A stretch of DNA of 64,000 nucleotides from Patescibacteria group bacterium. Lineage in GTDB: Bacteria; Patescibacteriota; Patescibacteriia; Veblenbacterales; UBA10138. How positions within the stretch are numbered: position 1 is the stretch's first letter; every line of letters begins with the position of its first letter. The stretch lies in contig JBAZOT010000002.1 of the NCBI GenBank assembly GCA_041648575.1, positions 34,038 through 98,037 of the forward strand. Direction: 5' to 3'. The notes under the pieces were generated by a model. It had not been told where the DNA came from. It did no database searches and worked only from the letters and a program-made list of their open reading frames with translations. A program made the position numbers and the translations under genes. This document shows, piece by piece, positions 9,083 through 22,348 of this stretch.

Positions 9083-12000
9083 TTACTCAATAGCAAAATT
9101 GGCTGTAAAAGTTAAGTTGTTACTAGGCATAGTAAAATTACATGTTGAAACAGTATTATCTCCTCCATCACAAGTAATGCCACTCCAATTTGAAAATGCA
9201 TAAAAATCTGCTGGTACAGCAGTTAAAGAAATAGATGCTCCACTAGCGGCTGATTTTGATATAGTACTACATCTAGTGCCACAAGTGATGCTGGCACTTG
9301 GCAAGCTAATAGAACCACTTACAGAACCTGCTGAAGAAGCTGGCGTTTTACTACCAGTAAGAGTATAGGTAACAACAAAATTAGCTGTGACTGATTTAGG
9401 AGCAGTTCCCATAGTTATAGATACGGGGCTAGTGGTACCACTGGCATCACCACTCCAATTCGAAAATCCATAACCACTATTGGCTGTGGCAGTTAATTGA
9501 ATAACTTCTCCATTAACATATGTATATGAATTAGCAACACAACCTGCGGAGTTGGCCAGACTGACAGCTATGGTACCACCACTTGATGGAAGAACTGACC
9601 TAGTAAGGGCGTAACAGACATTAAACGTTGTTGTCACTGATTTAGCGCTACTCATAGTAACAGTAGTAGGATTGGTTAAATTATTATTAGTACCAGTCCA
9701 ACTGGCGAAAGCATAACCACTAGCTGGTGCAGCTGTTAGTGTCACAGAAGCATTAAGAGTGTATTGCCCTGCTGAACAGCCCGTAGAATTGGCTGGATTG
9801 GCTACAATGGTACCACCGCCAGTAGGACTGACAGAAGTGGTAAGGGTGTAACAAGTAACGGCTGCTGCGCCGGTTACCTGATTTCCTGTGGTTGGGGTTG
9901 ATTTGTAGTTAGTTCCCTGAGCATATCCTGATGTATCTACCGTGCCTTTATATTCGTATACCGCTACATAGTAGGTGGTGCTGGCGGTAAGCCCGGTAAC
10001 TGCTACGCTGGTACCGGTGCCTTTATACATCACGTAATTACCGGTGGTACCAAGCTGCGTGCCACTACCAAATATCGTATTAGCAGTATAAGTAGTATAC
10101 GTGCCGTCTACTGGGTCGGAGTTAACCACCGCGCCTGATTTCATTAATACTATTACTCCGTCGCCGTTGCCGTTGCCGCGAGTCCAATTTACGGTCATAG
10201 TCGTTGAGGTGACAGAAGCAAAACCTACCCCAGTTGCTTGAGTTGATGGCTCGGTATAGAAGCTGCCATCTGAAGAGTAACCTGTACCAGCTGAATTAAT
10301 GGCATATCCTCTATAGTACAAAAGCGTGCCAGCGGTTAATCCTATCCTGGCATCAGTGAAAACGCCAATAGTCCCTGCTCCTTTAGTAGAACAGGTACCA
10401 GTCGTCAGTGTCGGAGCTGGTGCAGTACTCCAGCAGGTTCCATATTGGGTGATAATCGCGCCGCCGGTGGAAGTAATATTGGCGCCTAAGGTAGCTGTGG
10501 TAGAAGTAATAGAAGCGGAGGTAGGTGAACCAATCACAGGAGCGGTAACGGCGGCGGGAGTAGTAGTGAAAGGTTTTACTATGCCGTAATGATAATATGG
10601 CGATAAATTTGGTAAGAACAAATAAGCGCAATAATAGTAAGTTTTATCCGGTTGAAGCGCCAGAGTATCATTACCATCTCCTATTATAGCGTTTTTCTCA
10701 TTAGGTGACTGGCCAAATAACTGATCTCCAATCAAGTTAGCCTTATCAATAACAAGGCTAGGATATGATGAGTGACTTAACGAAGAACAAGAATTATTTA
10801 TACTAGAATACTTAAATTGAGCCGTTGGTGTACCTGAAGCCGCTGGGGTAGTACCATTTAAATTAATTGTACCGCTTAAAGTCACTTGAGTTGATCCTAT
10901 GGTAACAGGATCACCAGTTGTAACAATCGGCGCACCAGGCAACCGGAAAGTAGCAGTAACTGAAGTAGAGCCAGCAACAGTTGTGGTACAAGGGTTAGTA
11001 ATTCCAGTGCAAGCACCTACCCAACCTCCAAAAACAGCTGGGGTAGTCGCGGTGGCGGTTAAGGTTATACTATTACCAAGAGGATAAACATAAGAACAAG
11101 TGCCGGAACTACAATTAACTGTCTGTGGACTATCATTGCTAGTAACTCTACCTGTTCCAGATATAGTTACTGCGAGCGCGCCAGCTTCTGCTTGCCAGCC
11201 GTAGAAAACCATTACACCCTGATTAGTAAAAGCAAAACGATCGGCCGTACCTTGCCACAAGCGCAGTTGGTCTTTATTAGCTACCACCGCATCAGTAGTG
11301 CTGGTGTAAATTCCCCAGTGACTGCTGTCGGAAGTTCCCAAATCAATTTCCGGATTGCCAGTTGATTTAGAAAGATAAATCCTAGGACCCTTGCCAGTCT
11401 CGCCTACTAAACCCAATCTCGTGCCGTCAAAAAAACCAGCAGTACTTGGCGTGGCTGTACCAATGCCCACAATACCAACAAGATTAGCGGAAGTACCTTT
11501 AAAAATATTACTAGTCGTGCCTTCTTGCGTCCACAAGTCACCGGCTCCTATTCCACCCGCGGCCCAGGTTTCAATACAATCAGGGTCGCTACCAGCATCA
11601 GGCCCATCGGGTAAACAATATTTTTTAGCAAAAACGCGTGCATCAAAATAACCAGCCCAAGAAGTAGCATCGGTGGCTAAACCATAAATTGCATAAGCAC
11701 TGGTTTTGTTAGTAGCAGTGCCATAAACAGCATAACTACTGTTAACCCCAGCCACGCCGTAAATTGCATAACTACCAGACCCACTAACCACGCCATACAC
11801 TGCTTTTTCACCAGAGTGGGTTTGAATGGCACTAACTGTCGCATCGCTAATGGGGATTATAGGTGGAACGGCGTTGGAAAAACTACCAGCTGGAGCTAAA
11901 ATATAACTGCCAAAACTCCCAGTTCCCCCAAAACTGCCGCTGCCGGAAATATTTATTTTGCCGTCTTGTAAAACGCCGCTTCCTGTGGGTAATAGCCAAA

Positions 12001-17806: not shown

Positions 17807-18672
17807 ATGATTGATTTGCACCTCCATTCTAGTTATTCTGATGGTATTTTGAATATAAAAGAATTATCCAAAAAAATTGTTAACGCTGGTATTTGTTACT
17901 GTTCCATTACGGATCATGATAATATTGATGGCGTTGATGAAATGGCTGATATTTTGCAGAAAAGCAAAGTTTATTTTATTAATGGGGTAGAGCTTTCCAC
18001 GCTGTACAAAAATCAAGAAGTTCATCTATTGATATATAATTTTAATTTACCGGCGGCAAAAAAATTATTCAAGAAAGAAACAGATTGGTTGAGAGCGAAA
18101 AAATTAAAGAATTAAAAGTGGCAATTGAATTATTTAAAAAACAGGGATTTGTGATAGACAATTCATTAATTCCAGAATCTAAAAAACCCATTGGCTTTAC
18201 CGTAGCTAAGAATATCTACCATAACAAAGAAACTCAAAAACTTTTGATTAAAAAACACGGCCACCTTCTCAATAAGCAGGAATTTTTTGATTATTATCAA
18301 GCTAAAGGCAGGCCATGTTACACCCCAAGAAGTGGAGTTAATGTAGCTTGGATACTTAAAAAATTTAACAATATAAGTAAGGACATTATTTTAGCACACC
18401 CTTTTACACCTGTTAGTTTCGTAATAAAACCATTAGAAGATAAGGATATTTATGATTTAATAAAAAAAGGAATTACAGGAATAGAAATTTATTACAAAAA
18501 TACTCCCCCTAAAAAAATTAGACTGCTGGAAAAAATTGTGAAGAAAAACAAACTTTTTTATACTGGCGGATCAGATTCACATGGTAAAAGTAATGATACT
18601 TCATTAGGTTATTATAATAATAATTCTAAAATACCTAGTTTTAGGTTAAGTAATTTAAGCTATAAAATATAA
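17807..18672 (+). CDS. PHP-domain metal-dependent phosphoesterase, split into two overlapping ORFs (17807..18115 and 18085..18672) by an apparent frameshift in an A-run
   Basis: N-terminal ORF has the PHP motif (DLHLHSSYSDG…ITDHDN). The C-terminal ORF has the rest (ILAHPF…GGSDSHG). The frames switch near gcgaaaaaattaaag. This is either a genuine pseudogene or a homopolymer sequencing error. Confidence 0.55.
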
Positions 18673-18730
18673 ATCAAAGGGATAGTGGTGGAGTAACATA
18701 TTTTTCACTACTTTTATTATTTTTTTATTA

Positions 18731-19100
18731 GAGGCAGGGGACTCGGAGTTGCGAAGGCCGTCCCCTACCCCTAACAACTCCACCCCTGCCACGCTATTTT
18801 ATAACGCCTATTCAGCCAAACAAACTTGCTATGCCAAGCGGCCGACACACGCAAGTTCTTGTTGCTTCACTACGGCGTTATTAATAAAAAACTGCCAGCA
18901 TTGCGAAAGGTCAGCTCACGGTGCGGTACCTGAGCGAACGTTAAACTGGCGCGTGTTTTGTCCTTGTAGCATAGCGCCAGTAGTGAGCGAAGGTGGCACT
19001 GTCTGACCTGAAGCACTAGCTGGCGATTCTTTCTGCCATTTCTTTTAAAGAAATGGCAAAGAGTGTTTCTTAAAAAAGGTAACAAAGTACTTTTAATAAA
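18731..19100 (+). ncRNA. Candidate structured non-coding element, copy A; homologous ends and hairpin covariation with copy B at 42203..42470
   Basis: The 5' ~75 nt and 3' ~40 nt are conserved with copy B. A 5' hairpin and an 11-bp 3' hairpin are kept by compensatory substitutions. The 85- and 109-aa ORFs inside have no protein-like features. Strand is not determined. Confidence 0.35.
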
Positions 19101-19134: not shown

Positions 19135-19878
19135 GTGTTAACTAATACCAAAACATACCAAACAATTAAAACTGGCTGGCAATTTATTTTAGATGCCATT
19201 TTCCCTACTTTTTGCTTAGCCTGCGACCAAGAAGGTCGCGGCTGGTGCTGTGATAAATGCTGGCTAAATATTTCTTTTAACCGAAGTTTATTTTGCCCAG
19301 CTTGCGACCAACAACAAATTTTAGGTAAATTTTGCGATAATTGTAAAAAAGATCAATCACTGACTGGGCTTTGGACAGCGCAAAATTATAGCCAGCCAAC
19401 TATCCGCGCCCTGATTCATGGTTTAAAATACAAAGGCATTACTGAAATTGCACCCCGTTTAGCAGATTTATTAACTATCACTTTAAAAATATTTTCCTTG
19501 CCACCAGCTTGGCACCCAACACCACGCCAACAATGGATTTTGTGTCCCGTTCCTTTAACAGGCAGACGCGAGCGTGAACGAGGTTTTAATCAAGCAGAAC
19601 TGTTGACTCAATTAGTAGTTGAACAAAATAATCTGCTTGGTAAAAATTTATTAATCAGAACCAAATTCAAAAAACCGCAAGTTGATTTACCAACGAGCGA
19701 GCGACACCAAAATGTAGAAAATGCTTTTACTATCTCCAAAGATGCCTCAATTAAAGACCAAACCATTATTTTAGTAGATGATGTTTATACTTCGGGCTCA
19801 ACTATGGAGGCCTGTGCTAAAGTATTAAAATTGTCTGGCGCACGGGAAATTTGGGGATTAGTAGTAGCTAAAGGATAA
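19135..19878 (+). CDS. comFC: ComF family protein (ComFC-like phosphoribosyltransferase with N-terminal double Cys zinc finger)
   Basis: CxxC…CxxC pairs at the N-terminus. PRTase motif IILVDDVYTSGSTM at the C-terminus. Confidence 0.75.
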   Translation: MLTNTKTYQTIKTGWQFILDAIFPTFCLACDQEGRGWCCDKCWLNISFNRSLFCPACDQQQILGKFCDNCKKDQSLTGLWTAQNYSQPTIRALIHGLKYKGITEIAPRLADLLTITLKIFSLPPAWHPTPRQQWILCPVPLTGRRERERGFNQAELLTQLVVEQNNLLGKNLLIRTKFKKPQVDLPTSERHQNVENAFTISKDASIKDQTIILVDDVYTSGSTMEACAKVLKLSGAREIWGLVVAKG

Positions 19879-19978
19879 AATAGTGTTATCAGAGTTGTAA
19901 TGTTATAATATTGTAGTAACTCGCTGTTCTTGACAAAAAAATTATTTAAGATAGAATTATTGGGATCTTTATATTAAT

Positions 19979-20184
19979 GGAGGCGTGCCCGAGTCCCCGA
20001 ACTAGAACATAGTTCAGTACGGGGCATGGGTTGAAGGGGACGGTCTTATCACCCTACGGGTGATCTCCCGAAGGGAGAAAAACATTTACAAAATTCACGG
20101 TGGGGTCGCATAGTGGTTTAGTGCACCGGTCTTGTCACCCTACAGGTGATCTCCCGAAGGGAGAAAAACATTCACAAAATTCAC
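19979..20184 (+). repeat. Array of tRNA 5'-half fragments, each fused to a conserved ~55-nt two-hairpin element; 86-bp tandem period (units at 20042 and 20128)
   Basis: Fragment X1 (19979..~20045) resembles the tRNA-Ser(TGA) 5' half through the anticodon loop, with a 30-nt hairpin inserted in the D-loop. Fragment X2 (20099..~20130) is a type-I tRNA 5' half. Each is followed by (a/g)tcaccctac(g/a)ggtgatctcccgaagggagaaaaacatt(t/c)acaaaattcacgg. No matching 3' halves are present. Confidence 0.5.
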
Positions 20185-20275
20185 GGTGGGGTGGCCGAGC
20201 GGTTGAAGGCGACAGTCTTGAAAACTGTTATACCTCAAAAAGGTATCGCGAGTTCGAATCTCGCCCCCACCGCCA
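20185..20275 (+). tRNA. tRNA-Ser (anticodon TGA), class II with long variable arm, CCA encoded
   Basis: Acceptor stem ggtgggg/ccccacc. Anticodon stem acagt/actgt with loop cttgaaa. T-arm gagttcgaatctc. 3' terminal gcca. Confidence 0.88.
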
Positions 20276-20288
20276 AAAATAAAGATAT

Positions 20289-20378
20289 GGAGAGGTGGCT
20301 GAGCGGTCTAAAGCAACAGGTTGCTAACCTGTGACCCTTTACCGGGTCCCGTGGGTTCGAATCCCACCCTCTCCGCCA
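20289..20378 (+). tRNA. tRNA-Ser (anticodon GCT), class II, CCA encoded
   Basis: Acceptor stem ggagagg/cctctcc. Anticodon stem acagg/cctgt with loop ttgctaa. T-arm gggttcgaatccc. 3' gcca. Confidence 0.88.
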
Positions 20379-20459
20379 TAACAACTTTTTATCGGACAAA
20401 GACCCAGCTACTTCGGCTGGGTCTTACCGTAGATCATATTTACGCCTACTATATAACAT

Positions 20460-21545
20460 ATGGAAAACTTAAGCGAGTCGGTCCAAGAATTTAAAGAGAA
20501 GTACGAGAAAATTGCTCAGAACACCAAGCGCCATCACTGGGTTCCGCAATTTTACTTAAAATTTTTTGCAGCAAACGAAGGCGGCGATCAAATATACATG
20601 TATCAATCAGGAAATAATCCGCTATTGGTTGGTATTGCGAATATTGCCACAAGTAAAGATTTATACACTTTTGAGGAAAAAGATACTGGGCAGAAAACTA
20701 GGGTGATGGAGGGGGTGTTTGCTGAGCACGAGGGGGCTGTAGCCACAGTGCTTGCTGAGGTAATTAGGAGTGGAAATCTACCCACAACAGAAAGAGAACG
20801 TTCTGATATTGCCGCCTTCGTTTCCTTACTGCGGGTGCGGGGGCCATCATTTAATGAATGGCTTCAAAATATGGAGATTGAACATATTAAATTGTTCCAA
20901 CAAATCCAAACTGAACATGCGGATTCCCTTAGAGAGGAATTTAAAAAAGTAGGGGTAACTTTTTCATCTGATGAGGAGTTTGAAGAGATGAGAAAATTTA
21001 TGCATGATCCAAAAAATTATTCCATCAAGATGAGTGGGGGTGAAGGGCATTATTTTAAGCAAGCTATGGACTTGAGTAAGGATTTTTACCAAATTCTAAT
21101 GAGCAAAAAATCATGGCACTTACTTATTGCGCCACATAACCGTCATTTCATTACTTCAGACAATCCTGTCGTAATCCAGGAGCCAGTAGATTGCCCACCA
21201 CACGTAGCTGGAGGTGTTCTAAATGGTACTGTATTATTAACGATTGCACCGAAATTTTGCTTAGCATTTCGGAGAATGCCCCTTAACAGCCAAAATATCC
21301 TACTAACAAGGGAAAACGTAAATCACATTAACCGATCAATAGCTAGCGTCGCTCGTAGACAGATCTATAGTCACCTCAATTCGAAAGATTGGGCTATTCT
21401 ATGTAATGAGTATTTGACTGGCAATGAGAGCAAGGTGACCATAAAGAGGCTGGCACCATTTGCGCCATACTATATGGCACAAAGTGTCCCCCAACTCAAA
21501 GAAGCGGATGGTTTAAAAAATAATTCAGTATTACCACTTAAATAA
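20460..21545 (+). CDS. DUF4238-family protein (HHWVPQFYLKFF N-terminal signature); candidate antiphage effector of the Rst_DUF4238 type
   Basis: The N-terminal motif H-x-V/I-P-Q-F-Y-L-+-x-F is characteristic of DUF4238. 361 aa. Sits immediately 3' of the tRNA-Ser genes and the fragment array. Confidence 0.55.
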   Translation: MENLSESVQEFKEKYEKIAQNTKRHHWVPQFYLKFFAANEGGDQIYMYQSGNNPLLVGIANIATSKDLYTFEEKDTGQKTRVMEGVFAEHEGAVATVLAEVIRSGNLPTTERERSDIAAFVSLLRVRGPSFNEWLQNMEIEHIKLFQQIQTEHADSLREEFKKVGVTFSSDEEFEEMRKFMHDPKNYSIKMSGGEGHYFKQAMDLSKDFYQILMSKKSWHLLIAPHNRHFITSDNPVVIQEPVDCPPHVAGGVLNGTVLLTIAPKFCLAFRRMPLNSQNILLTRENVNHINRSIASVARRQIYSHLNSKDWAILCNEYLTGNESKVTIKRLAPFAPYYMAQSVPQLKEADGLKNNSVLPLK

Positions 21546-21580
21546 ACTGTGTTTAGGGGTATCTAATTCACTTTAAATTT

Positions 21581-22348
21581 ATGCCCACAAAAGAACAATT
21601 AGACTTTTTCCAATCATTATCTGAGCAAAAGAAAATTAGGAGAATTAAAAAAGCCCTTGAGAGTTTGATAAGTGTAAGTAAACGACAACTTTTCCTTTTA
21701 GACAAATATGAAAAATCGGCTCGACAAAAAGAAATGGGATTTGCTTATTTTTTTCGTACACTGAAGTATACGTGGGAGAATGTAGATTTTGCATTAGATT
21801 TAAGTAGAAACAGAAATAGGCGCTTTAATATATATCCAACCCGCCTGATTTGTGAAAACGTGTTTAGGCTAGAGTACTATATAAAACAAAAAAAGAAGGA
21901 ACAAAATGAAATCTGCCTTTGGGAAATGCTTCGGTTAATGAAGAGGTACTATGATGAATATGGCGACCTCTATTATAGGAATTCATATGAAGGAATGGTT
22001 AGAGATTTAGGGGAAAAAGGTACTACCTATCCAAATATTGATGATAAGACTGCATACCATGACCCGTTTCCTTCTATAGAGCAGTTGGTTACTAAGAGTA
22101 ATTTACCATCAACAAAAGGTTTTTATATTCATTATAGGTATTTATGTGAGGGGCACCATGGAAAATTATTAGCTATTTATATAGCTGACAACGAAATTGC
22201 CCAATGCAGGAGAAATCTACTTTTGATAGCTTTATTTTGTAAGTGGCTTTTACTTATCACTGATTCTCATATAGAGCATGCCACAAAAGAAATGGTGGCG
22301 GTTACAATAAAAAAGGCTGATGATATTATATTTTCCATTACAAATTAA
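21581..22348 (+). CDS. Hypothetical protein (255 aa), 35 nt downstream of the DUF4238 gene and probably co-transcribed
   Basis: No recognisable motif. Basic, Tyr/Arg-rich. Same strand as the DUF4238 gene with a short gap. Confidence 0.35.
   Translation: MPTKEQLDFFQSLSEQKKIRRIKKALESLISVSKRQLFLLDKYEKSARQKEMGFAYFFRTLKYTWENVDFALDLSRNRNRRFNIYPTRLICENVFRLEYYIKQKKKEQNEICLWEMLRLMKRYYDEYGDLYYRNSYEGMVRDLGEKGTTYPNIDDKTAYHDPFPSIEQLVTKSNLPSTKGFYIHYRYLCEGHHGKLLAIYIADNEIAQCRRNLLLIALFCKWLLLITDSHIEHATKEMVAVTIKKADDIIFSITN

Follow-up and report, generated by a model that had tools for sequence, protein, structure and literature searches.

The window analysed here is a 64-kb stretch of a Patescibacteria contig (JBAZOT010000002.1) in which an intact pair of serine tRNA genes, tRNA-Ser(TGA) and tRNA-Ser(GCT), is preceded by an array of two truncated tRNA 5' halves (F1 and F2), each followed by two small hairpins. 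The question raised by this locus is how incomplete copies of a tRNA gene came to be lined up in front of a complete one. A first-pass annotation of the sequence attributed the array to repeated site-specific recombination at the anticodon loop, with nested att remnants as the result. Comparison with related loci led us to another answer. With moderate confidence, we consider the array to be an iterated relic, devoid of any open reading frame (ORF), of a cassette that invades tRNA genes and is composed of the hairpin pair and a gene encoding a small GIY-YIG protein. Under this reading, which fits best, the array represents neither a split tRNA nor the debris of integrase att sites.

Structure of the array

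The array is a real and non-random feature. The tandem repeat finder TRF gave a period of 86 (2.2 copies, 82% matches) and a repeat search returned an 86-nt pair with 86% identity, the ...ggtctt end being present three times, which agrees with the 86-nt period initially proposed. The 22-mer CTCCCGAAGGGAGAAAAACATT occurs twice in the 64 kb, when none was expected from shuffled sequences. The full array was also found in an independent assembly (ENA contig ERZ27249422), while in a Logan assembly from a different sample (SRR8449827) the sequence extends to F2 and stops within the repeat, which is the behavior expected of a genuine repeat; therefore, the array is not an assembly artefact.

Both fragments are, as annotated at first, tRNA 5' halves broken in the anticodon loop, their end being moved to canonical nt 35, past the ...ctt. 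F2 finishes as ...cttG at 20134 and F1 as ...cttA at 20048, its G35 having changed to A. ARAGORN and Rfam identified the two intact tRNA genes already annotated and only these. The Rfam search of the whole window at the gathering threshold yielded just the two tRNAs, and that of 19850-20480 with E up to 10 added only chance matches, with no family for the hairpins or the fragments. The conserved two-hairpin element of ~55 nt contains the hairpins described, but it consists of three parts, namely a 30-nt hairpin pair (two tandem 6-bp stems with 3-nt loops), the pentamer AAAAC and a 15-nt leader. Its hairpins, reported as perfect, are so in copy 1, whereas copy 2 has one C.A mismatch. The hairpins and leader, compared as two 52-nt copies, differ at 3 positions. 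The predicted RNA fold of the whole array had a z-score of -5, which is uninformative because the palindromes and the tRNAs dominate it.

Comparison with related loci

A ComF-based scan of genome contigs gave one close relative, L005 (related loci are designated here by an L number), and closer ones were reached via ClpC homologues. The ClpC of the window, which comes from a Patescibacteria (CPR) metagenome-assembled genome, has a 100% match labelled 'Patescibacteria group bacterium', and the relatives are Veblenbacteria and Kerfeldbacteria. The first-pass annotation had suggested a search for empty sites and for variation in copy number among relatives, and both were found. In L160 (ClpC 68% identical), an uninterrupted tRNA-Ser(TGA), reading ggaggcgtgcccgagtggttgaaggggacggtcttgaaaaccgtt...cgcctccgcca, lies at 9531-9620 behind a similar promoter, and F1 matches its nt 1-35, the exceptions being the D-loop insert, a single base where that insert joins and the G35A change. 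L160 represents the empty, unoccupied site. In the window, the native tRNA-Ser(TGA) downstream of clpC-comF was interrupted between canonical nt 35 and 36, and F1 is the first 35 nt of the native gene, left behind its own promoter. In the same promoter and comF context, occupancy ranges from zero units in L160 to one in L005 (ComF 73% identical, with the same fragment as F1 at the orthologous site), two in the window, two identical longer units including the leader in L157, and a nested arrangement in L161, where a tRNA is inserted at 35|36. A TTGACA...-10 element precedes the tRNA or the fragment in L005, L157 and L160; TACACTTAATTGAGCTTTT is common to these three loci and its match in the window is only loose.

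The hairpin insert reported in the D loop of F1 is also there, but it measures ~33-34 nt, instead of 30, when compared with L005 and L160, from whose orthologous fragment or gene it is missing. An insert with the same termini and at the same site was found in the Veblenbacteria strain L028 (1470-1504), and not in its near-identical sisters L029-L037. As the near-identical strains L028-L037 differ by this insert and by a 58-nt hairpin-bounded unit, rearrangement at hairpin structures has been recent. In L161 (8651-8775), the complete tRNA nested at 35|36 is also bordered by the CCCCGTA/TACGGGG inverted repeat. The CCCCG(TA)...TACGGGG termini define a second family of small hairpin inserts.

The functional tRNA-Ser(TGA) of L161/L162 begins with a 5' half that agrees with F2 at all 36 nt, and ~32/34 of the F2 positions agree with the 5' fragment of L063 and 31/34 with the tRNA of that locus. 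Together with the second hairpin pair F2 shows 92% identity over 61 nt to L057/L094. F2 is the 5' half of another tRNA-Ser(TGA) allele and not a different isoacceptor. The 15-nt leader is homologous to the leaders of L005 and L031. The intact tRNA-Ser(TGA) of the window has the acceptor strand and T arm of the L161 allele and a variable arm resembling the A type (also in the comparison with L029), and the tRNA-Ser alleles at this locus are mosaics.

The possibility was considered that F1 and F2 are alternative 5' exons, or halves of a split tRNA, joined to a downstream 3' half. The acceptor strand of F2 (ggtgggg) could indeed pair with the ccccacc at the 3' end of the intact tRNA. However, the acceptor of F1 pairs with it at 5/7 positions only, and no other partner was found in the window: a 3' half for F1 (CGCCTCC beside a T arm) is absent from the 64 kb, in which T arms with tRNA context occur only in the two intact genes. 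This supports the earlier statement that these are not intron-bearing or permuted tRNAs. Furthermore, mismatches between fragment acceptors and the downstream tRNA are frequent in other loci, an intact copy is never missing, and no group I intron or other ribozyme was detected by Rfam in 19850-20480 with E up to 10. We know of no bacterial mechanism for joining such halves, and we regard this explanation as hardly credible.

The second gene of the pair is also affected among relatives. GIY-YIG insertions at tRNA-Ser(GCT) were found in L005, L028 and L157, and a gene for a large serine recombinase lies beside it in L161, so that the view of the tRNA-Ser pair as a hotspot stands. A degenerate 5' fragment with ~100 nt of hairpin-rich inserted DNA was observed upstream of tRNA-Ser(GCT) in L160 (9681-9802) and L157 (10865-10935); the tRNA-Ser(GCT) fragment is thus present even in L160, whose tRNA-Ser(TGA) site is empty.

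The hairpin pair as a dispersed repeat

The conserved two-hairpin element of the first-pass annotation is not specific to this tRNA. The family consensus is TCAGCC-nnn-GGCTGA followed by TCCGCC-nnn-GGCGGA, the stems of L005 being TCAGCC/GGCTGA and TCCGCC/GGCGGA, and the copy of the window shows three compensatory base-pair changes with respect to both. When the variable stem positions were left free, the module was recovered in 12/14 IMG/VR matches, and the same pattern followed by AAAAC retrieved it in more than 119 metagenome loci, which were screened for tRNAs and GIY-YIG only. The requirement of AAAAC after the hairpins enriches the latter set in Ser anticodon-loop contexts; AAAAC follows the hairpins wherever they are seated in a Ser anticodon loop. 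Among 102 distinct copies, the three free stem positions were Watson-Crick in 98/102, 100/102 and 96/102 (96-98%), with GC, CG, AT and TA pairs all represented and loops varying freely. This pattern indicates that stem pairing has been kept by compensatory change across copies.

Copies were also located within protein genes, in the spaces separating them and on viral contigs of IMG/VR. The hairpin pair is a dispersed palindromic repeat of Patescibacteria and not a tRNA-specific leader. Twenty-six of the 61 non-tRNA copies lie inside long stop-free frames, which suggests tolerated in-frame insertions of 10 codons. Copies in L055 (4697-4731), L046, L084, L105, L023 and L145 overlap the 3' end of rpsL, as read by translation, just before rpsG (in L055), or the ends of other ORFs. 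No orientation bias of the non-tRNA hairpins relative to flanking ORFs was found, nor any excess of G.T over A.C mismatches in the 102 copies, and as a consequence nothing points to an RNA strand.

These data bear on the hypothesis that the fragments and their hairpin leader are under selection, be it for pre-tRNA processing, stability or attenuation, for the supply of small RNAs resembling tRNA halves, or for decoying the nuclease away from the functional gene. The array is probably transcribed as the 5' leader of the tRNA pair, since the only good promoter sits upstream of F1 and none comparable was found inside the repeat units; this TTGACA-16-TAGAAT element is probably the native tRNA-Ser(TGA) promoter, now driving the whole array. 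The hairpins are kept by compensatory change, the D stems of the fragments likewise (ccc/ggg, cct/agg, cca/tgg), and fragments persist at the comF locus across deep divergence, all of which would fit a selected leader. Nevertheless, the number, length and hairpin content of the fragments vary among close relatives and L160 has none, while F1 carries a further insert and the G35A change. The hairpins show none of the signs of an RNA strand mentioned above, and the D-stem pairing is explicable by recent copying from functional alleles. Selection on the leader therefore seems quite unlikely to us.

A small GIY-YIG gene and a recurring cassette

The hairpins are accompanied in 37 related loci by a gene encoding a GIY-YIG protein of ~80 aa (79-86 aa), whose domain covers residues 1-67 (Pfam PF01541, E = 8e-15). 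The family is Patescibacteria-wide and its nearest PDB chains are the UPF0213 proteins 1zg2 (E = 1e-9) and 1ywl. A tblastn search gave 39 matches to this family at 500 nt or less from a hairpin pair versus 4 in the remaining 600 kb, that is, 0.34 versus 0.007 per kb over 715 kb of loci, a density ~50-fold higher near the hairpins. In L005, a second hairpin copy comes after the first 9 nt of tRNA-Ser(GCT) and before an 80-aa GIY-YIG ORF, which ends just short of the intact tRNA-Ser(GCT).

No fewer than 25 distinct loci show the full order, which begins with tRNA nt 1-35 and the hairpin pair and goes on with tRNA nt 36 to ~40-57, the GIY-YIG ORF, 5-25 nt and a complete tRNA of the same isoacceptor. 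This full form was found for Ser(TGA), Ser(CGA) and Glu(TTC), with the break always between canonical nt 35 and 36. Forms without the ORF, as in the window, occur in L049, L057, L070, L071, L116, L136, L147 and L155, L071 having two fragments in a row. A mirror form was also observed, in which a complete tRNA is followed by ~10-18 nt, nt 2x-35, the hairpins and nt 36 to the end (e.g. L028, L064, L075, L125). In partial tRNA copies the hairpins are also seated in the D loop, in the T loop or behind nt 7-9; all the seats in tRNAs are unpaired positions of the cloverleaf. None of the loci compared showed the hairpins in a full-length tRNA, and all had an adjacent intact copy.

In the five GIY-YIG-bearing loci compared (L038, L053, L060, L063, L075), the 30 nt upstream of the fragment and those upstream of the tRNA are unrelated, so the duplication starts there at about tRNA +1; in L157 and L071 the leader is duplicated too. 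About a third of the loci have a fragment that does not differ from the downstream tRNA, and in others the fragment is clearly xenologous. Pooled identities between fragment and downstream tRNA were 0.78 for the acceptor, 0.64 for the D arm and 0.69 for the anticodon stem, figures affected by a biased inclusion rule. These figures show at most a weak trend towards fragments with a retained acceptor strand and an exchanged D arm relative to the downstream gene. In L063 (378-632), the GIY-YIG frame runs into the downstream tRNA-Ser(TGA), overlaps its first 15 nt and stops at the D-arm TAG (...KWLFNQNGGVA*). The gcaTAG D-arm allele, which is also that of F2, is common beside GIY-YIG ORFs.

The origin initially proposed, in which the fragments are nested att remnants of integration and excision by an integrase at the anticodon loop, can be examined against these findings. 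It has in its favor that tRNA genes are classical integration sites, that L161 has the large serine recombinase beside tRNA-Ser(GCT) and that the genes after the tRNA pair of the window are variable. However, no integrase was present among the ORFs within ~5 kb (four run against Pfam and the others judged by precomputed Pfam labels), which encode ClpC, PHP, ComF, DUF4238, a weak DUF5677-like protein, GreA and FabH. What recurs at the junctions is GIY-YIG, in 119 loci screened solely for it and for tRNAs. Moreover, the duplicated part is the 5' half (nt 1-35), with no 3' part bounding a kilobase-scale island; the supposed elements between the repeats have only ~50 nt in units of 86 nt; and the junction is a dispersed palindrome, with no unique attP. 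We thus abandon the site-specific recombination originally put forward, which appears very unlikely.

A simpler alternative is a local tandem duplication in which the hairpins and leader are the tRNA's own upstream terminator and leader, the leader and 5' half being multiplied by slippage or unequal crossing-over with no mobile element. The exact period of 86 nt, the hairpin-plus-leader copies differing at just 3/52 positions and the two identical units with leader of L157 agree with it, and a duplication of this sort may well have been the final event that gave the window its second unit. As an account of the whole array it is unlikely, given that the empty site L160 has no hairpins before its tRNA, that no hairpin unit precedes F1 and the hairpins directly abut nt 35 of the truncated gene, that this 30-nt module recurs in unrelated contexts and in association with GIY-YIG genes, and that the D arm of F2 comes from a different allele.

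Table 1. Coordinates of the array and associated features in the 64-kb window
Feature	Position	Strand	Description
Promoter-like element	19930-19957	+	TTGACA-16-TAGAAT, 11/12 matches; 21 nt upstream of F1
F1	19979-20048	+	nt 1-35 of a tRNA-Ser(TGA) of native 'A type', acceptor strand ggaggcg, with D-loop insert (by comparison with relatives)
D-loop hairpin insert of F1	19994-20026	+	tCCCCG...TACGGGGca, ~33-34 nt, second kind of small hairpin insert
Hairpin pair, copy 1	20049-20078	.	TCACCC-tac-GGGTGA and TCTCCC-gaa-GGGAGA
AAAAC and leader, copy 1	20079-20098	+	AAAAC (equivalent to tRNA nt 36-40) and 15-nt AT-rich leader
F2	20099-20134	+	5' half to canonical nt 35 of another tRNA-Ser(TGA) allele, D arm gca-tagtggtttag-tgc
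Hairpin pair, copy 2	20135-20164	.	TCACCC-tac-AGGTGA (one C.A mismatch) and TCTCCC-gaa-GGGAGA
AAAAC and leader, copy 2	20165-20184	+	
Intact tRNA-Ser(TGA) 'B'	20185-20275	+	ARAGORN; Rfam tRNA 61.3 bits
Intact tRNA-Ser(GCT)	20289-20378	+	ARAGORN, Rfam
Hairpin past the tRNA pair	20399-20425	+	10-bp perfect hairpin, end of the conserved block; homologous hairpin and flank in L028

Proposed origin of the array

In the explanation that we favor, the hairpin pair and the GIY-YIG gene would form a selfish cassette entering tRNA genes at unpaired positions (8|9, D loop, 35|36 and T loop). The nuclease would probably cut at or near DNA hairpins, after which homology-directed repair or recombination would install the cassette. 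Candidate routes are homing, by cutting and repair from an occupied allele, Campbell-type recombination via the hairpin core, and a single-strand process similar to 'peel and paste'. Host viability would be preserved by what lies downstream, always a complete tRNA or a substitute 5' half, and every round would shift the earlier 5' half upstream. Either a second invasion or a tandem duplication of 86 nt may have given the window its two units, with later gene conversion between tRNA-Ser copies, deletion of the ORF being among the steps. At present the array most likely amounts to no more than a long 5' leader, whose transcription would start from the promoter at 19930 and which RNase P would remove; locally it is probably a relic with no function beyond that of a discarded leader.

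Several observations weigh against this explanation. The 64-kb window contains no gene for the nuclease, a search for the GIY-YIG gene having found none, and the hairpin pair occurs in it only twice. The share of copies linked to tRNAs (41/102) is inflated because AAAAC was demanded after the hairpins. We also considered that the 15-nt leader could be a remnant of the 3' end of a GIY-YIG ORF, but the scores obtained against 27 ORF ends were reached by 82-116 of 500 shuffles; the likeness is not above chance and, as a consequence, does not support the descent of the array from an ORF-bearing copy. The hairpin-plus-leader copies are 94% identical, yet F2 and the tRNA differ by ~40% over 21 nt (the D arm and adjoining bases between their shared ends), a contrast that no single simple event explains. 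Furthermore, lineages whose ComF identity is as low as 30-40% still have fragments at this locus, which requires recurrent invasion and conversion, or selection. Finally, we know of no cleavage specificity for this nuclease family.

A bolder proposal, which we put forward only tentatively, is that the hairpin pair, the 80-aa GIY-YIG gene and the tRNA 5' half constitute an autonomous mobile element of an undescribed kind, a 'seamless' parasite of tRNA genes. Its nuclease would cut single-stranded or hairpin DNA after nt 35 of tRNA-Ser or tRNA-Glu, and also in other cloverleaf loops, and the element would insert with its own copy of nt 1-35. Occupied and precisely excised sites would then both encode a working tRNA, and arrays of tRNA halves would be the fossil record of a process analogous to IS200/IS605 peel-and-paste or to homing, but with a GIY-YIG enzyme reduced to its catalytic domain as the driving force.

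Patescibacteria have genomes of ~1 Mb with essentially single-copy tRNA genes, which makes repeated, non-lethal entry into the anticodon loop of an essential tRNA remarkable. The array of the window belongs to a widespread and apparently undescribed class of scars in Patescibacteria tRNA genes. If the cassette explanation is true, it would account for the mosaic tRNA-Ser alleles and for the frequent assembly breaks at such loci, and would offer a compact nuclease with a defined hairpin or loop target, possibly useful as a single-stranded-DNA tool. It would also be a warning for annotation, as tRNA 5' halves and hairpin inserts in these genomes would be relics and not split genes.

Neighborhood of the array

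Downstream of the hairpin at 20399-20425, gene content differs among relatives. In the window, a DUF4238 gene and a weak DUF5677-like gene (20460-22348) come right after it, whereas L028 has a different ORF at the same point and L161 the large serine recombinase, which suggests that the 3' side of the tRNA pair harbors a variable island.

Upstream, an ORF-poor stretch between the PHP-domain gene and comF (18722-19062) has 45-50% GC versus ~30% around it and folds far better than shuffled sequences on both strands (z = -5.8 and -6.2). It matched neither Rfam, with E up to 1, nor, by blastn, the relatives fetched, and is a candidate for an unannotated structured RNA. The PHP-domain gene itself (17807-18672) is divided into two overlapping ORFs of 102 and 195 aa, where L157 has a single PHP gene of 288 aa; a frameshift or pseudogene, or else a sequencing error, is likely. 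Finally, L005 (CAZGYI010000017.1) is titled 'uncultured Gammaproteobacteria bacterium', but its ClpC and ComF are 86 and 73% identical to those of the window with the same gene order, and its taxonomic label is probably wrong.

Comparison with known systems

Dispersed palindromes linked to one nuclease or transposase gene are known from REP/BIME repeats with their RAYT transposases and from the IS200/IS605 'peel and paste' elements. The loci studied here resemble them in that hairpins in single-stranded DNA are the likely recognition feature and that insertion beside a fixed short target could leave seamless sites. They differ in the enzyme, which is GIY-YIG and not a Y1 HUH transposase, and in the location of the elements inside tRNA genes and coding frames, with duplicated tRNA halves. 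GIY-YIG was the only recurrent neighbor seen at the hairpins, in screens that included no search aimed at RAYT genes.

Rickettsia palindromic elements, said to have been described by Ogata et al. in 2000, are reportedly short palindromic selfish DNAs of ~100-150 nt tolerated inside genes. The 26/61 non-tRNA hairpin copies in stop-free frames, and the one over the end of rpsL, recall them, although the sequence, the length (30 nt) and the host phylum are different. To our knowledge, no duplication of tRNA halves has been described for these elements.

The tRNA fragments associated with integrative elements are usually 3' parts that mark the distal boundary of an integrase-bearing island of kilobase scale, whereas here they are 5' halves, 50-300 nt apart, with no integrase. 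The two cases have in common a partial, dead tRNA copy beside an intact one as a by-product of insertion (bioRxiv 10.1101/2022.07.05.498093).

Phage T4 SegB is a free-standing GIY-YIG homing endonuclease encoded in a tRNA gene cluster (PMC2330249). As in that system, the GIY-YIG gene lies beside tRNA genes and its presence varies among relatives, with occupied (L005, the window, L157, L161) and empty (L160) alleles at one locus, and spread by cleavage and homologous repair would explain the mosaic tRNA alleles. However, Seg proteins carry DNA-binding domains, while here the catalytic domain stands alone (79-86 aa), and they leave neither partial tRNA duplications nor hairpin modules. Group I introns in Patescibacteria favor tRNA position 35/36 (PMC13011429), the same unusual insertion point in the same phylum, but no group I core is present here and the interrupted copy, without a 3' half, would be unspliceable.

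None of the REP/RAYT, IS200/IS605, SegB, integrase-fragment or Rickettsia systems shares the tRNA-5'-half architecture, and our literature searches on the motif sequence and on GIY-YIG, tRNA and Patescibacteria found no description of the motif or the arrangement. The nearest concept is that of the Ssn proteins, which are small single-strand nucleases of the GIY-YIG type with NTS/SRM hairpin repeats on their flanks (Chenal et al., 2025; PMC11893778), in a layout that these authors compare to an IS-like 'repeat-gene-repeat'; tRNA genes and Patescibacteria go unmentioned in that work. The hairpin pair here is distinct, as a tandem of two 6-3-6 hairpins, and the degenerate SRM motif HGTCWYN(0-2)YYVSBRHN(0-5)WNVSBRGN(0-2)RNCYNB (PMC11893778) gave no match in the window and 0/163 in hairpin copies with 12-nt flanks on both strands. 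The likeness to Ssn lies in a small single-domain GIY-YIG protein (80-100 aa) encoded beside short hairpin repeats that are also scattered over the genome, an association found here in the 37 related loci although not in the window itself. If our explanation is true, a tRNA-targeting member would be added to the small GIY-YIG nucleases paired with hairpin repeats.

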